Shown here piece after piece: positions 2,406 to 54,405 of a stretch of DNA of 55,557 nucleotides. A program made the position numbers and the translations under genes. Numbering within the stretch: position 1 is the stretch's first letter; each line of letters starts with the position of its first letter. Below the pieces are notes generated by a model. That model was not told where the DNA came from. It was given only the letters and a program-made list of their open reading frames with translations, and searched no databases. Source of the stretch: a virus (lineage: Duplodnaviria > Caudoviricetes); the IMG/VR virus record IMGVR_UViG_3300044699_000015, positions 1-55,557 of that record, one strand, 5' to 3'.

Positions 2406-2963
2406 TCATGCGTGGGTTAGTGTGTTAAGTTGCGCCTCGGCTTCGGTTATAGTCGCCTTGGCAGCGGAAAGCTCTATTGTCTCAAACGCATCGAAATAAC
2501 GCTTCCCAAAGGCATCCTGAGCGCAATTACGCAGTATCCGGCTTTTAGTCTCCTTCGCCTCTTTCAGTTTCCGTTCCCAATAGATGATTAAAGAACCGGG
2601 GGAAGATGTTCCATTCCTTATTTTTGGTTCTACTGGTTTCAATTCGTGGCCCTGTTTAGAACCGTCCTGAGGGTCACAAGTAGAACCGCGTAGGTTCTGG
2701 ATAGAACCGTTCACGAAATACCGATTAGACCTTTTTAATTCGCGTTTTTCGACTTTGATGTAGCCAGCCGATTTCAATTCCTTAATCCATCCGAGGAGCG
2801 CGGCGCGTCCGCAATGCAGTTCCCGGCAGATTGTTTTGAGCGACGGCCAGCAGCACTCATTCTTGCCCGTCATATCACGGAATAAATGCCAAGCCCTAAA
2901 TGCGCCGTGGGATATGCGCTCGTCTCGGATGATTTTGGAATATAGCTTTGGGGAGATTTTCAA
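2406..2963 (-). CDS. winged-helix (HTH_36-like) replication-initiator-like protein, paralog 1
   Basis: RISHGAFRAWHLFRDMTGKNECCWPSLKTICREL...IKELKSAGYI...SNRYFV; start moved to TTG 2963 because similarity to 52445-53251 begins there and the upstream DNA is promoter plus structured leader. Confidence 0.75.
   Translation of the reverse strand: MKISPKLYSKIIRDERISHGAFRAWHLFRDMTGKNECCWPSLKTICRELHCGRAALLGWIKELKSAGYIKVEKRELKRSNRYFVNGSIQNLRGSTCDPQDGSKQGHELKPVEPKIRNGTSSPGSLIIYWERKLKEAKETKSRILRNCAQDAFGKRYFDAFETIELSAAKATITEAEAQLNTLTHA
2591..2709. repeat. iteron-like repeats inside initiator-like gene
   Basis: TAGAACCG at 2657, 2681, 2702; AAGAACCG at 2591; inverted GGTTCT at 2626 and 2693. Confidence 0.6.
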
Positions 2964-2969
2964 TCTGAT

Positions 2970-3102
2970 AACCAATTCCCACAAGACACACCCGCCCCGG
3001 CGACAACCGTCCAGCCTCGCGGCGAGAGATTCCGAAACGGGCGTGTATTGTGGCAACTGATTAGTGCAGAAGCCGCGTATGTAGCATTCGAGACGGTTGT
3101 CA
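2970..3102 (-). ncRNA. structured 5' leader (A-C-B-C'-A'-B' pseudoknot/switch), copy 1
   Basis: A 3102-3091 pairs A' 3012-3001 (12 bp); B 3062-3032 pairs B' 3000-2970 (29/31); C 3077-3072 pairs C' 3023-3018; G-U wobbles only on minus strand. Confidence 0.75.
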
Positions 3103-3116
3103 TATCGTCTAGTGGG

Positions 3117-3145
3117 TTTATCGCCCATGCCGCCGAAAGTGTCAA
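3117..3145 (-). promoter_or_regulatory. sigma70-like promoter
   Basis: TTGACA-17-GATAAA just upstream of the leader. Confidence 0.55.
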
Positions 3146-3158
3146 CGAGATTCATAGG

Positions 3159-3353
3159 CTATTTCGATAAAATCCAATCAGTGATGGGGTCTGGCTTATT
3201 TTTCCTTGGCACTTTCACAACTTTGCCGGATTTCAAAAGTTTCTCCCAAGTCGTTTTGCCCTCGCGGACTGCGCGTGAGGCGATATTATAGCAACGCTGG
3301 CAAAGGCTCCTTGCTATAGATTCTCTGTCGCATTTGGGGTTATTGCATTTCAT
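3159..3353 (-). CDS. small Cys-containing (Zn-finger-like) protein
   Basis: MKCNNPKC...LCQRCY. Confidence 0.6.
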   Translation of the reverse strand: MKCNNPKCDRESIARSLCQRCYNIASRAVREGKTTWEKLLKSGKVVKVPRKNKPDPITDWILSK

Positions 3354-3516
3354 ACCATCGGACTCCTTGTATTCTCGCGTTGAAACATCTCGCACTCCTC
3401 TGCATTTGTGCAGAAACGGCCACAGTATTTACAGCGATTCGCGTAGCCCATAGATAGCCAGATTGCTATGCCGGATATGGCTATGGCTAGGATTGTGCAG
3501 ATGATTTCGGTGAGGG

Positions 3517-25056: not shown

Positions 25057-25731
25057 ATGGCATCACTAAGACCAATTGGCGGAACGGCATCAGGGTCAAC
25101 CTATGACCCATCCTTGTTCGGTTACAGCGTGGGGGCAGCGCCAACTCGCGGGCAAGGCGCTTTCGGAGCCGTGCCGGGACAAATTGGAGTGCCGCCATCA
25201 ACCTACACGCAGACAACCAATGCAATTCCGTCTTTAGGGCCAGCCGGAAATGCTGCCGGGACTGCCATTCAAAATCAAATTGCTGGAAAATTGTCGCCTG
25301 CAACTTTGGCTGCTTTGCGAGATGCCGCTGCGACTTATGGCGTTAGCACAGGCGTCCCCGGAAGCCAGTTTCAAAATTACGATTGGTTGCAATCTCTCGG
25401 TCTGAACACGGAAAATCAGGTCAATACCGGAATCGGGAATTACAACAAGACTTTGACTACGGTAGCGGGAACACAGACCGACCCAAATCTTGCCGCTTCC
25501 ATCGCAGACCGAAATGCTACCTATGCCGCTGCACCCGACCCCGCTGCTGCTGCGAGTTACGCACAAGGATTGTTCGACAAGTATTTGCAGTCATTAAAAA
25601 CGCCTGCTGGCGGCACAAGTTCAGCCGGAAGCACCCTTCCATGGTATATGCAAGGAGATAACTTTGGAGCATCTCTTGGCCCCGGAACATGGCAAACTGG
25701 CCCCGGCACGTATAGAACTCCATACCAATAA
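25057..25731 (+). CDS. putative internal virion/ejection protein
   Basis: G/A/T-rich; ALRDAAATYGVSTGVPGSQF; position. Confidence 0.5.
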   Translation: MASLRPIGGTASGSTYDPSLFGYSVGAAPTRGQGAFGAVPGQIGVPPSTYTQTTNAIPSLGPAGNAAGTAIQNQIAGKLSPATLAALRDAAATYGVSTGVPGSQFQNYDWLQSLGLNTENQVNTGIGNYNKTLTTVAGTQTDPNLAASIADRNATYAAAPDPAAAASYAQGLFDKYLQSLKTPAGGTSSAGSTLPWYMQGDNFGASLGPGTWQTGPGTYRTPYQ

Positions 25732-31739: not shown

Positions 31740-32986
31740 GCGACAACGCTTTCACGCAAATCTTCAAAGAACCCTTTTTCTTTCTTCTCAGTCGGAGCCT
31801 TTTTGGTGCGAATCTTTCCCGGTGTGCTGCCATTGGCATCTTCCACAGATGCTTTCAATTCTTCCAACTCGGCCTTGAGTGTGTCAATCTGTCGAACCAA
31901 CATGGGATGAGCGGCAGCACGCAGCCGGATAGCAGCATCCAAAGCAATCCTTTCCTCTGGCTTGAGTTTATCGCGGCCAAAGTAGGCTTTATCCACCAGC
32001 GCCATACTTTCATCGAATATAGCTTTGCTATCGGCATCCTTGGGGTCTGGTGAATACAGTTCCGGTGATTCATCCTGCAAATCCTTGGTAATCGCCGCAA
32101 ACGCTTTTGTGGAGCGTTCCAATTGTTCCTCACGTTGCTTCTGTTCGGTATGCTCCTTTTGGATGCGCTCAGCCTCCGCTTGCTTGGTGCGCTCGCCTGC
32201 ATTTTTGTGATAATCCTGCAAGGCGCTATCACGCTGGCGTTTCAATTCATGCAGCTTTTCATACTGCCGCATGACTCCACCAGCACGAGCGCCGAACATC
32301 AATTCTGCTTGTTCCTCTGCTTTGGCGGGTGGCAAACTGAATATCAAAGCAAAGTCGTTGTCCCAAGTAGCCTTGCGTTGCGTGCCGTTGTCATCAACCA
32401 TCAAACCCTCAATCAAACTCTTGGCATATTCCGCCGCCGTGTTGAAAGGCTTTTCGTGCTTCTCTACAAATTCAGGATTTTTCTCATAGCGATAAGTCCC
32501 CACTTCCGCCTCCAATTCCTGAATGCGCTTATCCTTGGCGGTCAATTGTTCAGATAATACCTTGGCATCCCCATTTCCGTTAGCGCCTTCGCGCAGTTTG
32601 GTAATCTCTGCCTCCAATTCCTTACGCTTAGAAAGATTGTAATTAACAACCTTTCTCATGTGCTTCATTGAAGCCGTTTCAACCTTGTTTTTGTCCTCTG
32701 GAGGCAAAACAAGTTCATCAATATCAATTTTATCAGTGGGTTTCTCAGGAGCCTTTTCAATGGGCTTATCCGGTTGTTTTTCCAGAGGTTTATCAGTCGG
32801 TTCCTTCGCGTCTTTTAGGTCTGGTTTGTCCGGTTGTTTAACCACTCGCGCTTTGGCATCTACCGAGGCGAAAGGGCTTTTAGATGGCTTCGGCTCCGGT
32901 GCAGGAGCGGGAGCAACCGCCGCTGCGATTGGTGGAGTTGTAGAAGTCGGAGCCGAAGGTGTGAGGGTGGAAATGGTTTCTGGCAT
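31736..32986 (-). CDS. putative capsid scaffolding protein
   Basis: P/K/D-rich disordered N-terminus with PDKP-type repeats, long coiled coil. Confidence 0.5.
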   Translation of the reverse strand: MPETISTLTPSAPTSTTPPIAAAVAPAPAPEPKPSKSPFASVDAKARVVKQPDKPDLKDAKEPTDKPLEKQPDKPIEKAPEKPTDKIDIDELVLPPEDKNKVETASMKHMRKVVNYNLSKRKELEAEITKLREGANGNGDAKVLSEQLTAKDKRIQELEAEVGTYRYEKNPEFVEKHEKPFNTAAEYAKSLIEGLMVDDNGTQRKATWDNDFALIFSLPPAKAEEQAELMFGARAGGVMRQYEKLHELKRQRDSALQDYHKNAGERTKQAEAERIQKEHTEQKQREEQLERSTKAFAAITKDLQDESPELYSPDPKDADSKAIFDESMALVDKAYFGRDKLKPEERIALDAAIRLRAAAHPMLVRQIDTLKAELEELKASVEDANGSTPGKIRTKKAPTEKKEKGFFEDLRESVVA

Positions 32987-32989
32987 AAA

Positions 32990-33235
32990 TTATGCGGGTT
33001 CGTAAGTTTGTTGAAATATGTCTGGTTTACATGGATAACATTCGCCCTTAACGCCTTTGATAATCCAATCCCCCACATTGGCGGTCATTACGCCCTCCAA
33101 AGTAGTAATGCCTAATTTTCCATCACCTAGGTGGTGTATCGCCCTGCTATTCCCAATCAGAAGCCTTACCATATTGAAATTTTCAGGAGTGTTAATTTCG
33201 GCATCTATAACTACTGGTTTCTTTCTGAATTTCAT
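32990..33235 (-). CDS. conserved phage protein (PGDYG-like)
   Basis: KFRKKPVVIDA...TLEGVM.A.VGDWIIKGVKGECYPCKPDIF..TY. Confidence 0.8.
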   Translation of the reverse strand: MKFRKKPVVIDAEINTPENFNMVRLLIGNSRAIHHLGDGKLGITTLEGVMTANVGDWIIKGVKGECYPCKPDIFQQTYEPA

Positions 33236-41606: not shown

Positions 41607-42917
41607 ATGGCAATCGACTGCTCCAAGTTCAACAGCTTTTTGCTGAGAAGAACCCCCGATTTTGATAAACAGTTATCAAAAGACCGTTATCCGTTCAGCT
41701 ATCTCTACACCAACATGTATGAGAGCCAGCCTTTCACAGCGTTTACAGGCTTTCAACACACTTGGGATAGGGTGCATGTGACTCGTCCCAACGATGATGG
41801 CAATTGGGATACGGTCAACTCGAACGACTGCGCTCAAAACATCTGCGATTATTCGCGTGTGTTCACAGGTTGGGGTTCGACTCGTTCTACGTATGGCATT
41901 TTCCATCGGGACTATCAGTCGCCGGTGTTCTGCTTTGACCAGTTAAGACATGTGGAGGAAGCGGAAGCGCAATTGTCGGCTATCGTTGACGGCCACAAGA
42001 AATTGCCTGATAGCATCATTTCGGATTTCCTTCGTTTGCTCGCCATGCGGCAGTCCAATGTGATTTGGATTTGCGGCTCGGCGGATACGCAAGTGACAAC
42101 CACCGATTCAATGTTCACGTTCACTAACGGCACATTGAATGTCAATTTGGGTGGCACAGGAAATCTGCCTGATTCCAAGCTTTCCATCCAATATCTGAAC
42201 AACCACGTCGAAAACCTGATGTATAACGGTTATTTTGACCAAGACTTTATCCCCACGGGTAAGTTTTCGGTCACTACCGACATTCAGACGCAAACGGATT
42301 TGACCAATGCTAATCCATCGTTGACGCAGATGTATAACGCGGCTGACTTTGTGAAGGGCGGAAAATTCTTCGCCTATGGCGTTATGTCCGGTGCGGGTAA
42401 TTGGTTGTTCAAGGTTGACCCGGAACCGATGCGTTTTCAGCATATTGGCTCTGGCGTCCTTCGGCGCATTCTGCCCTATCAGAACGTGGCAACTACTGTG
42501 GGCAAACAGCCGGTGTTTGATACCGCGTATAAGAACGCAGAGTATCAGATGTATCACGTCTATAATCGTGCGGCTCGCAAGATTGAGGTTGGCGACATTA
42601 CGCCGGTCAATCCTGAAATGAAGTTCAACACGGCGCGTTCGCTCATGGGCAAATGGTCATGGAAGTCGCCTGATTACTTCCGCGCCACCGACCCGAACAC
42701 TGGGACAGTGTGCGAATACATGAACGACAAGAAGAACAAGGGTTACTTTTTGGCTGAGTTCGAGATGGGTGCAAAAACCATCTACCCGGAAATCGAAATG
42801 GTCATCATTGCGAAACGTGAACCGCAGGGCGTGGTTAGCATTCCGCGTTGTGCCGATTCGCCTTCGATGGTCTATCAGTCGCTCACGCCTTACAATGGGC
42901 CTCTGTGCGAGCAATAA
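41607..42917 (+). CDS. probable major capsid protein
   Basis: 436 aa, codon usage looks biased (AAC/TTC/AAG), own promoter region, followed by strong hairpin and structural genes; no direct family match verified. Confidence 0.65.
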   Translation: MAIDCSKFNSFLLRRTPDFDKQLSKDRYPFSYLYTNMYESQPFTAFTGFQHTWDRVHVTRPNDDGNWDTVNSNDCAQNICDYSRVFTGWGSTRSTYGIFHRDYQSPVFCFDQLRHVEEAEAQLSAIVDGHKKLPDSIISDFLRLLAMRQSNVIWICGSADTQVTTTDSMFTFTNGTLNVNLGGTGNLPDSKLSIQYLNNHVENLMYNGYFDQDFIPTGKFSVTTDIQTQTDLTNANPSLTQMYNAADFVKGGKFFAYGVMSGAGNWLFKVDPEPMRFQHIGSGVLRRILPYQNVATTVGKQPVFDTAYKNAEYQMYHVYNRAARKIEVGDITPVNPEMKFNTARSLMGKWSWKSPDYFRATDPNTGTVCEYMNDKKNKGYFLAEFEMGAKTIYPEIEMVIIAKREPQGVVSIPRCADSPSMVYQSLTPYNGPLCEQ

Positions 42918-42931
42918 GAGTCTGATTAACC

Positions 42932-42959
42932 GGACGGCAGGTGTCATAGCCTGCCGTCC
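42932..42959 (+). terminator. stable hairpin after capsid gene
   Basis: GGACGGCAGG/CCTGCCGTCC 10 bp perfect, no U-tract. Confidence 0.5.
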
Positions 42960-42976
42960 TAACAACGAAAGGTTTT

Positions 42977-43261
42977 ATGGACTCAACTGATTATCAAAAT
43001 GGGGACGGCGGGCCTGCTACGGCTTCGCTGGACGAATCACCCGACACGAAGGGTGGGGAAGATACGTTCTTTTTGCCATCCGACTTCTGCGAAGGGATGG
43101 ATTACAAAGAGGGTGATACGATTACTCTTAAAGTAGTTAATGCGCCTGATTCGGATGGTGATGTGGAGGTTAAGATGGCAAAGGGTGAGAGCAAGCCAAA
43201 GGATGACTTCTACAGCGATATGCGAAGTTCTATGAGTGACGAAGGAGGCCAAAGTGAGTAA
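42977..43261 (+). CDS. small acidic protein
   Basis: 94 aa D/E-rich, AAAGG SD. Confidence 0.7.
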   Translation: MDSTDYQNGDGGPATASLDESPDTKGGEDTFFLPSDFCEGMDYKEGDTITLKVVNAPDSDGDVEVKMAKGESKPKDDFYSDMRSSMSDEGGQSE

Positions 43262-52166: not shown

Positions 52167-52277
52167 GCCTGAAATTATCACCCCGCCGTTGCAAAGTCCA
52201 TCCGATGTAATACGGATGCCATTCCGAACACTTTCACCTTGCCATTTTTAATCGGCGGGAGGACGATGCGAGAATGC

Positions 52278-52306
52278 TTGACAGGAAATGGTCATTTGAC
52301 CAATAT
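52278..52306 (+). promoter_or_regulatory. sigma70-like promoter
   Basis: TTGACA-17-CAATAT. Confidence 0.6.
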
Positions 52307-52314
52307 CGGAGCAA

Positions 52315-52438
52315 TGTATACGTTGATTCAGTTCGCGGCAAGCGAGTCTCAATCGCCCCCGTTCGTGTCTGTAGGAGTCCGAAGCCTTGCCGCCCAAAGA
52401 CGTATACAGCCTACAGACATGAATCGGGGTTATTGGGA
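52315..52438 (+). ncRNA. structured 5' leader (A-C-B-C'-A'-B'), copy 3
   Basis: A 52315-52324/A' 52399-52408; C 52335-52342/C' 52386-52393; B 52347-52375/B' 52410-52438 (27/29). Confidence 0.75.
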
Positions 52439-52444
52439 ATCGCC

Positions 52445-53251
52445 TTGCAATTAGACCCCAAGATTTATTCCCAAATCATTCAAGATAAGCGTATCTCTCA
52501 CGGCGCTTTCAGGGTGTGGCATCTACTTCGAGACATGACCGGCGACAACACTCATTGCTGGCCATCCATGCGGACGATATGCAAGAAGATTAGTTGCAGC
52601 AAATCTTCGGTTTCGGGGTGGATTAAAGAGCTAATCGAAGCGCAGTATGTAACGGTGAAGCGCGGCTCTCGACATTCGCCAAACAGGTATTTCGTGAGCG
52701 GTATCGTTTCAAACCTCAGTGTCTCGGAAGGATACCACAGAGGTATCGTTTCAGGGACGGAATTGAACTCAAAGAATATTAACTCAAATAACCAACTAGC
52801 TTCTAGTATGGAAAATCCACAAGACAAAAACGTTCAGGACTTCCACCACTGTTACAGGCAATCAACGGGATTAGATGTCTCTCTTAATTTTTACCGTGAA
52901 AGCATGTGGCGCGAATGGTTCCGGTATGGCGAAACTCATTGCGGTGGGTTTACTCAGGACGACTTGCGGGCCGTGGTTGAGTTGCGAAAATTCCGGGCCA
53001 AGAACAAAATGCAGGGATACCACACTTTAGCGTTTAATGCGCTTATAGGCTCGCCAGATGTCATGGAGGAGGATTTGTCAGAAGCCCGCGCAAAGTCTCG
53101 CCAGCGCAAGCCTAGCGCCAGAGACGCGATTTTAAGAGCCACAGGCCGACCCACAGAGCCAACCCGTGCTGCTGTGACTGCGGGCAATGTGATTGAGGGG
53201 GAACGCGCTTTCCAAGCGTTCAGGCAATGGCGTGCAGAGAATAACCTGTGA
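52445..53251 (+). CDS. winged-helix (HTH_36-like) replication-initiator-like protein, paralog 2
   Basis: RISHGAFRVWHLLRDMTGDNTHCWPSMRTIC...GWIKEL...NRYFV; TTG start 6 nt after leader. Confidence 0.75.
   Translation: MQLDPKIYSQIIQDKRISHGAFRVWHLLRDMTGDNTHCWPSMRTICKKISCSKSSVSGWIKELIEAQYVTVKRGSRHSPNRYFVSGIVSNLSVSEGYHRGIVSGTELNSKNINSNNQLASSMENPQDKNVQDFHHCYRQSTGLDVSLNFYRESMWREWFRYGETHCGGFTQDDLRAVVELRKFRAKNKMQGYHTLAFNALIGSPDVMEEDLSEARAKSRQRKPSARDAILRATGRPTEPTRAAVTAGNVIEGERAFQAFRQWRAENNL
52700..52753. repeat. iteron-like repeats
   Basis: GGTATCGTTTCA at 52700 and 52742; inverted GATACC at 52731. Confidence 0.55.
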
Positions 53252-53725: not shown

Positions 53726-54034
53726 GTGAATGATATGGGCTATTTTCCAAACGGAACAGCGGGAGATTGTTACGAGCATGAGTATTGCTTTAATTGCATC
53801 CATTATGGCCCGCAAGATGGCCCCGGATGTCCAATTATGTTGGCGCACATTCTCCACAATTATGAGGAGTGCAATAACGAGAAAAGCATATTGCATTTGC
53901 TTATTCCGATGGATGAACAAGGATTTAACAAGAAGTGCCTTATGTTCGTTGAGTCTGCCAAGGCATTTAAAGGTACTTTGTCACCACATTTGAAAGAGTG
54001 GGCAAAGAAACAAGGAATAGTCGAAGTCAAGTGA
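53726..54034 (+). CDS. Cys-rich conserved phage protein
   Basis: GYFPNGTAG...YCFNCIH...GCPI. Confidence 0.7.
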   Translation: MNDMGYFPNGTAGDCYEHEYCFNCIHYGPQDGPGCPIMLAHILHNYEECNNEKSILHLLIPMDEQGFNKKCLMFVESAKAFKGTLSPHLKEWAKKQGIVEVK

Positions 54035-54405
54035 GCCAAAAATTCAACTCGGCATGGCTGGAAAAACAGCGTTTAAAGCGTCCAGAATCGATTATAGCGC
54101 GTCCTAGCAATGTTGCTTTAGAGAAAGACCTGCACGCCCTAATCCTGTCCTATTGCCGCGATAATCGCATTTACGTGGTGCATAGCAGGATGGATAAGAG
54201 GGCAACCAACAATACCGGCACAACGGACTTTATCTTAGCGATGCCACAAGGAAGAACACTATGGATTGAGGCAAAGCGCAAAGGCGGTAAACTGTCACCA
54301 GAACAAACTATCACAAGGCATGTGCTTAGAGCTTTGGGGCATCAGCATTATGTGGTTTGGAACTATGCCGACTTCGTTTCGATTGTGAAGGCTCAAACTG
54401 CCTGA
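54031..54405 (+). CDS. VRR-NUC (PD-D/ExK) nuclease
   Basis: EKDLH..I; GTTDFIL; LWIEAKRKGGKLSPEQ. Confidence 0.85.
   Translation: MSQKFNSAWLEKQRLKRPESIIARPSNVALEKDLHALILSYCRDNRIYVVHSRMDKRATNNTGTTDFILAMPQGRTLWIEAKRKGGKLSPEQTITRHVLRALGHQHYVVWNYADFVSIVKAQTA

Follow-up and report, generated by a model that had tools for sequence, protein, structure and literature searches.

Where does the replication initiator of this phage begin, and what is encoded in the stretch immediately ahead of it? The window analysed here is the whole viral record, which is complete at 55,557 bp (47% GC) and carries two wHTH (HTH_36) replication-initiator-like genes. In the ORF track, the first of these (paralog 1) is a 249-aa frame at 2406..3155 (minus strand), the first 64 codons of which are occupied by a leader; read from a TTG at 2963, the gene has a short form of 185 aa (2406..2963, minus strand; Pfam HTH_36, 1.2e-7; PHROG 270, 1.1e-12). 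Paralog 2 encodes 268 aa from its own TTG (52445..53251, plus strand; PHROG 270, 1.7e-13). A preliminary description of the region had proposed that inverted repeats ahead of paralog 1 form a structured leader matching that of paralog 2 in layout, and that the N-terminal extension of the ORF is probably not protein.

Both genes matched phrog_270 'replication initiation protein' and DnaD-like and O-like families (paralog 1 being read from TTG 2963), and residues 80-133 of the 249-aa paralog 1 ORF matched Pfam HTH_36 (PF13730, 31.8 bits, cut-off 25). Plasmid RepA families gave no match to either initiator, Pfam yielding HTH_36 only and PHROGs phage families. Genes for an ERF annealing protein and a RecE-like exonuclease lie near paralog 1. 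The paralog 2 ORF (52274..53251, plus strand) shares 55% identity with paralog 1 over 95 aa. The similarity sets in at residue 54 of the former and residue 61 of the latter, and the peptides upstream are therefore unrelated between the paralogs. The phage is very poorly annotated overall, as 14 of the 15 large ORFs tested had no Pfam match and the sole match was VRR-NUC at 53998-54405.

A conserved hairpin ahead of the initiator start codon

The dominant structure in the paralog 1 leader is a long hairpin (2969..3063, minus strand; MFE -55.3 kcal/mol) formed by elements B (3063-3032) and B' (3000-2969) around an apical region at 3031-3001. The MFE structure gives 30 pairs over 32 positions, with six G-U pairs in the core, bearing out the B/B' pairing first described, and the helix ends 5-6 nt before the TTG (2963-2961, minus strand), a spacing that also agrees with the earlier reading. 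This TTG is the conserved initiator start as judged from the clade alignment and codon constraint. Element A (TGACAACCGTCT; 3102-3091, minus strand), which holds the UG of an upstream ATG, forms a 10-bp perfect inverted repeat with A' (GGACGGTTGTCG; 3012-3001, minus strand), read in the sequence of the apical region and directly abutting B', as had been stated. The 12-bp A/A' pairing claimed for these elements is present as 10 Watson-Crick pairs (3002-3011 with 3092-3101, 100% complementary) plus two terminal G-U pairs. Similarly, element C (CGCGGC; 3077-3072, minus strand) has its listed partner C' (GCCGCG; 3023-3018, minus strand), with which it pairs in an enforced conformer, and this 6-bp match is not significant by itself.

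Folding with a shuffle control gave z = -6.2 for the paralog 1 hairpin against 300 dinucleotide shuffles. The antisense sequence is far weaker (-30.1 versus -55.3 kcal/mol in sense) because 8 of the 40 pairs in the whole hairpin are G-U. Over the wider region 2950-3160 (minus strand), the MFE was -80 kcal/mol (z = -3.9), with B/B' dominant. In a genome-wide fold scan (110-nt sliding MFE on both strands; 11,090 scan windows, mean -24.0, sd 6.0), the five top windows all fell in the paralog 1 leader (-58.3) or the paralog 2 leader (-50.8), which were the first- and second-ranked loci, respectively, and the best unrelated window ranked sixth at -48.3. Further stable folds, at -44 to -48 kcal/mol per 110 nt, were observed at 32821-32990 (plus strand), 42851-42990 (both strands), 53078-53187 (minus strand) and 25088-25227 (minus strand).

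The likeness in layout to the second leader also held. The paralog 2 leader spans 52314-52447 (plus strand), and both leaders run in the order A-C-B-C'-A'-B'-TTG, with paralog 2 elements A at 52316-52323, C at 52335-52342, C' at 52386-52393 and A' at 52400-52407 (all plus strand). Its hairpin (52339..52447, plus strand; MFE -51.3 kcal/mol, z -6.9) consists of a 5' arm at 52339-52375 and a 3' arm at 52410-52447, the latter taking in the TTG start itself (52445-52447).

A word-based search for relatives returned two close proteins, and HMMER against 1.84 billion representatives returned 306 matches at E up to 1e-3, including 72 at E up to 1e-10. At the DNA level, 47 metagenome loci were compared, among which the leader clade comprised L003 and L005 only. 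In L005 the leader is complete and the gene is broken after ...NCWP, while the L003 contig starts within arm B. A long hairpin ending 0-7 nt before the start was present in all four DNA leaders (paralog 1, paralog 2, L005 and L003), with z values from -6.2 to -8.1 (L005 -7.2, L003 -8.1) and 4-8 G-U pairs per hairpin. Each is more stable in sense than in antisense: -55.3 versus -30.1 kcal/mol in paralog 1, -51.3 versus -47.4 in paralog 2, -61.0 versus -47.1 in L005 and -55.8 versus -39.3 in L003. In an alignment of these four rows fitted to the structure, 86.9% of 122 cells pair compared with 35-45% when partners are slid, and both-sided changes occur in 11 of the 31 pairs compared with 2-5 when slid, a count reached in none of 500 shuffles. 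All four leaders also have a CCCGUU island in arm B in common. A covariance model built from the four leaders found those four alone, plus weaker antisense echoes of three, across the window and the 47 loci (195,087 bases). A comparable fold was absent at the 42 testable distant-homologue loci (z -3.5 or weaker), three loci having too little upstream sequence. Two scans of viral contigs found no further relatives; of two scans of genome contigs, the first found none and the second found four loci, all of a distant clade whose members have a short N-terminus and lack the hairpin.

Rfam release 15 contained no match at E up to 1 for either phage leader or for those of L005 and L003; the leader is a real and conserved structured RNA that is uncatalogued. 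An unrelated sub-threshold match to RsmV at L003:949-1122 (minus strand; 21.9 bits versus a gathering score of 100, E 0.0067) is probably due to chance. As a separate observation at L005:1556-1690, the initiator protein is identical to that of L003 for 40 residues and continues, after ...NCWP, as unrelated sequence with stops, so that L005 is a truncated or rearranged gene copy with its full leader retained.

Some familiar interpretations of such a hairpin were set aside. It was rejected as an intrinsic terminator, since the U-run after it is absent and a terminator scan found none there; two weak terminator-like sites occur near paralog 2, outside the hairpin. Retron, integron-attC and IS-end readings were dropped on account of the start-codon register, the sense specificity and the position inside the replication module. 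A scan of both strands of both leaders with a sigma-70 consensus, which may not be that of the host, found no promoter-like site.

Start codon and open frames of the leader

That TTG 2963 is the functional start of paralog 1 is well supported by the clade residues, the onset of codon constraint, gene calls and AlphaFold2 confidence, in agreement with the preliminary description. The residue aligned with this codon is L, V or M in all 36 clade cluster representatives. Frame-0 extensions of at least 43 aa (mostly 52-67 aa) are called in 26 of these (11 with L, 12 with V and 3 with M at the start residue), a further one is extended by 11 aa (M), and the gene calls of the other nine begin at exactly that residue, among them P0010, which is paralog 2 called from TTG 52445. 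In sub-clades that lack an extension, W, G, R, F or H occupies the position. The four DNA leaders start with TTG, TTG, TTG and GTG, although TTG makes up 39.5% of Leu codons and GTG 28% of Val codons, giving four NUG codons out of four a p of only ~0.02. The residue after the start is K or N in 31 of the 36 representatives, which yields NUGA. Between L005 and L003, differences at codon positions 1, 2 and 3 number 3, 2 and 18 over the 42 codons after the start, compared with 15, 9 and 16 over the 34 codons before it, which look coding-like in no frame. AlphaFold2, run with the 36-row alignment, predicted no secondary structure for residues 1-60 (pLDDT 40-50), a confident fold from about residue 66 and pLDDT of at least 94 from about residue 70.

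The earlier proposal that the extension is not protein stands only in part. The upstream peptide appears unconstrained, and amino-acid conservation, which would have spoken for translation from ATG 3155, was looked for and found to be lacking, given the missing codon periodicity before the start in L005 versus L003. Against the proposal, two frames run through the region without a stop. Frame 0 opens at an ATG at 3153..3155 (minus strand) and continues for 64 stop-free codons, the peptide being predicted as disordered (pLDDT 40-50). Overlooked at first was a frame -2 upstream ORF that leads from element A to a stop on the TTG itself (2960..3103, minus strand): its ATG lies at 3103-3101, it spans 47 codons, and its TGA at 2962-2960 overlaps the start codon as TTGA. 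Since frame 0 is open in all four leaders and called as an extension in 26 of the 36 representatives, ribosomes probably cross the leader even though its peptide is unconstrained, and the leader is better described as 'translated through, but not for its peptide' than as 'not protein'.

Across the leader, neither frame 0 nor frame -2 contains a stop in any of the four DNA sequences (one of them partial), while frame -1 contains 5, 5, 1 and 1. In dinucleotide shuffles, frame 0 was open by chance with frequencies of 0.12, 0.08, 0.235 and 0.375, frame -2 with 0.25, 0.145, 0.30 and 0.37, and both together with 0.023, 0.007, 0.053 and 0.10. The frame-0 ATG is located at -192 in paralog 1, -171 in paralog 2 and -189 in L005. 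In the same three leaders, the only ones to reach that far, the frame -2 ATG is found at -140, -131 and -158, respectively, where it forms the first three bases of element A or abuts it (ATGACAACCGTCT, ATGTATACGT, ATGAACTCC), and the resulting ORFs have 47, 46 and 53 codons. In paralog 1, L005 and L003, the TGA that closes this upstream ORF shares bases with the start codon (TTGA or GTGA); in paralog 2 the stop is a TAG lying 7 nt beyond the start (52314..52454, plus strand; ATG 52314, 46 codons, TAG 52452-52454).

Traces of the frame -2 reading may also be present in the protein clusters. In about 19 of the 26 called extensions, one or two arginines are followed at the aligned position by Y, N or H and then D, E or A (R-[Y/N/H]-[D/E/A]), residues whose shared codon form, xAT-Gxx, would fit a conserved frame -2 AUG better than a peptide motif as far as the peptides can tell, with the limit that compatible dipeptides are common by chance. 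Likewise, most extensions seem to translate the CCCGUU island as P-V, and P0020, P0029, P0039 and P0091 seem to translate it as S-P-F, the latter matching frame -2 in the leaders with DNA; being read in two ways, the island points to conservation at the nucleotide rather than the peptide level. Searches of a protein collection with upstream-ORF peptides and short forms returned exact matches for none of seven, which is uninformative.

Several smaller features accompany these frames. All four leaders have a frame -2 NUG at exactly -26 relative to the start (GTG, ATG, ATG and GTG; 2987-2989, minus strand, and 52419-52421, plus strand), which gives a 9-11-codon mini-ORF ending on the upstream-ORF stop and may simply belong to the helix. 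In paralog 2, an additional frame -2 ATG at 52266-52268 (plus strand; -179) is preceded by GGGAGG, the only strong Shine-Dalgarno-like motif noticed near either leader, and would lengthen the upstream ORF to 62 codons. Adjoining the paralog 1 leader upstream is a 78-aa ORF (3159-3395, minus strand) with two CxxC pairs (zinc-ribbon-like) and no family match, the TAG of which lies 4 nt before ATG 3155 in the identical frame.

Alternative helices and a proposed gate on initiator translation

With regard to the second helix, A/A' (with C/C'), the 70 nt upstream of B are more complementary to the apical loop than mononucleotide shuffles are in paralog 1 (p 0.002-0.008), paralog 2 (p 0.002-0.018) and L005 (0 of 1000 shuffles). 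The element order A-B-A'-B' is that of a pseudoknot, and simultaneous pairing of A/A' and B/B' had been envisaged in the preliminary description. As stated, that reading is doubtful. A linker of ~25 nt from A to B would hardly span ~45 stacked base pairs, so on geometric grounds a full pseudoknot is sterically unlikely, and enforcing A/A' (with C/C') cost the full leader 14.9, 21.7 and 22.5 kcal/mol relative to the MFE in the three leaders. The two helices therefore look like alternative conformers, with the B/B' state predicted to be favoured. In a nascent transcript ending at A', A/A' is part of the MFE in paralog 1 and L005 but not in paralog 2. In the latter, element C overlaps the outer 5' hairpin arm, which pairs with the TTG region, meaning that the two states compete for the same bases.

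Taken together, we consider it about evenly balanced (probability roughly 0.5) that this is a cis-acting mRNA leader in which a leader ORF and a hairpin gate translation of the initiator, with A/A' as an alternative helix masking the upstream ATG. At equilibrium, the weak TTG 2963 (NUG throughout the clade) would sit at the foot of the 30-40-bp B/B' hairpin, which would occlude the ribosome landing zone (predicted mean unpaired probability 0.13-0.21 at -20..-1 before the start) and leave A free. A Shine-Dalgarno motif is absent from most predicted genes of the phage, the regions upstream of which are A/C-rich, and initiation should therefore depend on unstructured RNA. The initiator would then be made only once the hairpin is melted by ribosomes that entered further upstream. 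As their entry point, the 46-53-codon frame -2 ORF is the best candidate, with its ATG at the 5' end of A, possibly together with the frame-0 ATG, and the overlap of its stop with the start (UUGA or GUGA) would permit termination-reinitiation coupling. A/A', with C/C', would tie the upstream segment to the apical loop and bury the frame -2 ATG. As this helix can form before B' is transcribed and is the less stable of the two, it is probably a transient or alternative conformer that sets how frequently the upstream ORF is read. Occlusion, coupling and the A/A' switch are what we infer from the predicted folds and frames. Running counter to the gate are three clade members with Q after the start, and hence no UGA, as well as paralog 2, where the stop lies 7 nt past the start and A/A' falls outside the nascent MFE; moreover, the open frame 0 would be explained equally well by a protein that is simply longer at its N-terminus or by a long isoform in the same frame.

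Conceivably, if with some doubt, selection keeps both frames open through one hairpin since each has a use. From the frame-0 ATG, ribosomes would produce a long initiator with a disposable tail, those starting at the frame -2 ATG in helix A would reach the stop on UUGA and reinitiate to give the short initiator, and the switch between A/A' and B/B' would set the ratio of the two forms. If so, this ratio would set the timing or amount of replication initiation for each of the two initiator/origin sets.

Several other readings compete with that of a gated leader. Initiators produced in in-frame long and short forms are known from RK2 TrfA and R6K pi, and the real start here might likewise be ATG 3155 in frame 0, with the 64 codons forming a disordered, fast-evolving tail, TTG 2963 being a minor internal start at most, and the hairpin being an RNA element within coding sequence that serves some other function, for instance in ribosome slowing, mRNA stability or protein binding. 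We regard this as unlikely. Frame 0 is indeed open, three leaders contain a frame-0 ATG (at -192, -171 and -189), 26 of 36 representatives are called with extensions (mostly 52-67 aa), and the stop of the upstream gene lies 4 nt before ATG 3155; however, a coding tail sits poorly with the loss of codon periodicity before the start (15, 9, 16) and its sharp onset there (3, 2, 18), with tail pLDDT of 40-50, and with a CCCGUU island that apparently reads P-V or S-P-F, which in the peptides suggests nucleotide-level conservation. It also leaves unexplained the strict L/V/M at residue 65, compared with W, G, R, F or H in extension-less sub-clades, and the record's own gene call for paralog 2 begins at the TTG. 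At the other extreme, the leader could be non-coding and free of ribosome transit, the hairpin blocking the start unless it is removed or forms late: RNase III-type cleavage would free the start, or an A/A' kinetic trap would let nascent transcripts alone be translated; the lambda N leader and the MS2 maturation gene are precedents. A helix of 30-40 bp exceeds two turns and, at 30-45 pairs, the ~20-bp length expected of an RNase III processing site; A/A' belongs to the nascent-transcript MFE in paralog 1 and L005 and is less stable than the final fold; and peptide constraint is seen in neither frame. Nevertheless, a non-coding leader would explain neither the two stop-free frames, compared with 5, 5, 1 and 1 stops in the third, nor the ATG at A and the stop on the start codon, and we hold it to be quite improbable.

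Roles outside translation fare worse. The initiator itself, predicted to be an initiator-like DNA binder, might bind A and A' as the inverted half-sites of an autorepression operator, or the hairpin might serve it as an origin element, and A' (GGACGGTT...) does have an exact 8-mer in common with one of the GGTTCT repeats inside the paralog 1 gene, a repeat search grouping 2994-3012 with 2649-2667 and 2694-2712. Such a match has an estimated chance expectation of ~2%, though, and in paralog 2 and L005 A/A' is without clear match to their own repeats. A DNA-level role is further opposed by the strong strand asymmetry, in which the many G-U pairs become A-C mismatches on the opposite strand, and by the registration of the hairpin on the start codon in all four leaders, making this reading very unlikely. 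Finally, the pairings could be functionless chance inverted repeats, as would suit C/C', which is just a 6-mer, but the hairpin z, the genome-scan rank, the contrast with homologues and the compensatory changes all contradict this and render it scarcely credible.

Plasmid rep leaders and the genomic setting

Gates composed of a leader ORF and a hairpin are textbook elements of plasmid copy-number control, and to our knowledge they have hardly been described for phage initiators. For example, IncFII (R1) plasmids couple tap to repA under CopA control, an arrangement resembling the present one in that a short upstream ORF is coupled to a rep start hidden in structure. In I-complex plasmids, a loop sequence of an upstream stem-loop base-pairs beside the initiator start, much as B, lying in the loop of A/A' plus C/C', pairs with B' in the phage. 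The plasmid pseudoknot has few base pairs and activates translation, whereas the equivalent pairing in the phage involves ~30 bp and should repress it, and the two show no sequence similarity. In these plasmids (IncI, IncB/O, IncK and IncZ), initiator translation needs translation of a leader peptide (repB/repY, repA/repZ) and involves an antisense RNAI and a pseudoknot switch (PMC10286972). No promoter for an antisense RNA was found in the phage leaders with the sigma-70 consensus, which may not be that of the host.

A close parallel is S004-repA of SGI1 (IncN2/N3-type), where a leader ORF and a stem-loop couple translation of a rep gene (PMC7826253). There, the leader ORF enters a long inverted repeat, the stem-loop masks the rep start, leader stop and rep start are adjacent or overlapping, and the product is a replication initiator, all of which resemble the phage arrangement (PMC7826253). 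The phage arrangement differs in that all 95 nt of the hairpin lie within the ORF, whose ATG is covered by an additional upstream helix, A/A'; the start codon is an NUG that lacks a clear Shine-Dalgarno motif; the initiator is of another protein family, HTH_36; and the element belongs to a phage, with two copies per genome, and is known from its sequence. With respect to the class of leader-coupled rep genes, the phage has an upstream ORF that ends at or overlaps the initiator start and, by prediction, a stem-loop that masks the start region. The proposed control principle is known from plasmid rep leaders, of which the phage leader is a new variant, uncatalogued in that Rfam has no match and full-text literature searches found no description of it. 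The clade that it marks comprises at least 36 protein clusters, all of uncultured viruses, and it corrects their gene starts, most of which are called ~60 codons too long. If the gate operates as proposed, it would also provide a compact natural case of two mutually exclusive helices, each hiding another start codon.

Within each initiator gene, the linker-coding part contains iteron-like repeats (2590-2712, minus strand, and 52697-52753, plus strand). Those of paralog 1 comprise four copies of GGTTCT and two of AGAACC in ~110 nt, including GGTTCT-N4-AGAACC, while paralog 2 has two copies of GGTATCGTTTCA with a spacing of 42 nt and GGATACC in between, and L003 has GGGTTAAAA..AACCC-type repeats at the equivalent place. 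By their sequence, these repeats look as though each paralog carried its own origin within the gene, in the style of lambda O. The initiator's distant relatives include four genome contigs, three of which are labelled Verrucomicrobiota, Verrucomicrobiia or Limisphaerales, a set of labels that hints at the host.
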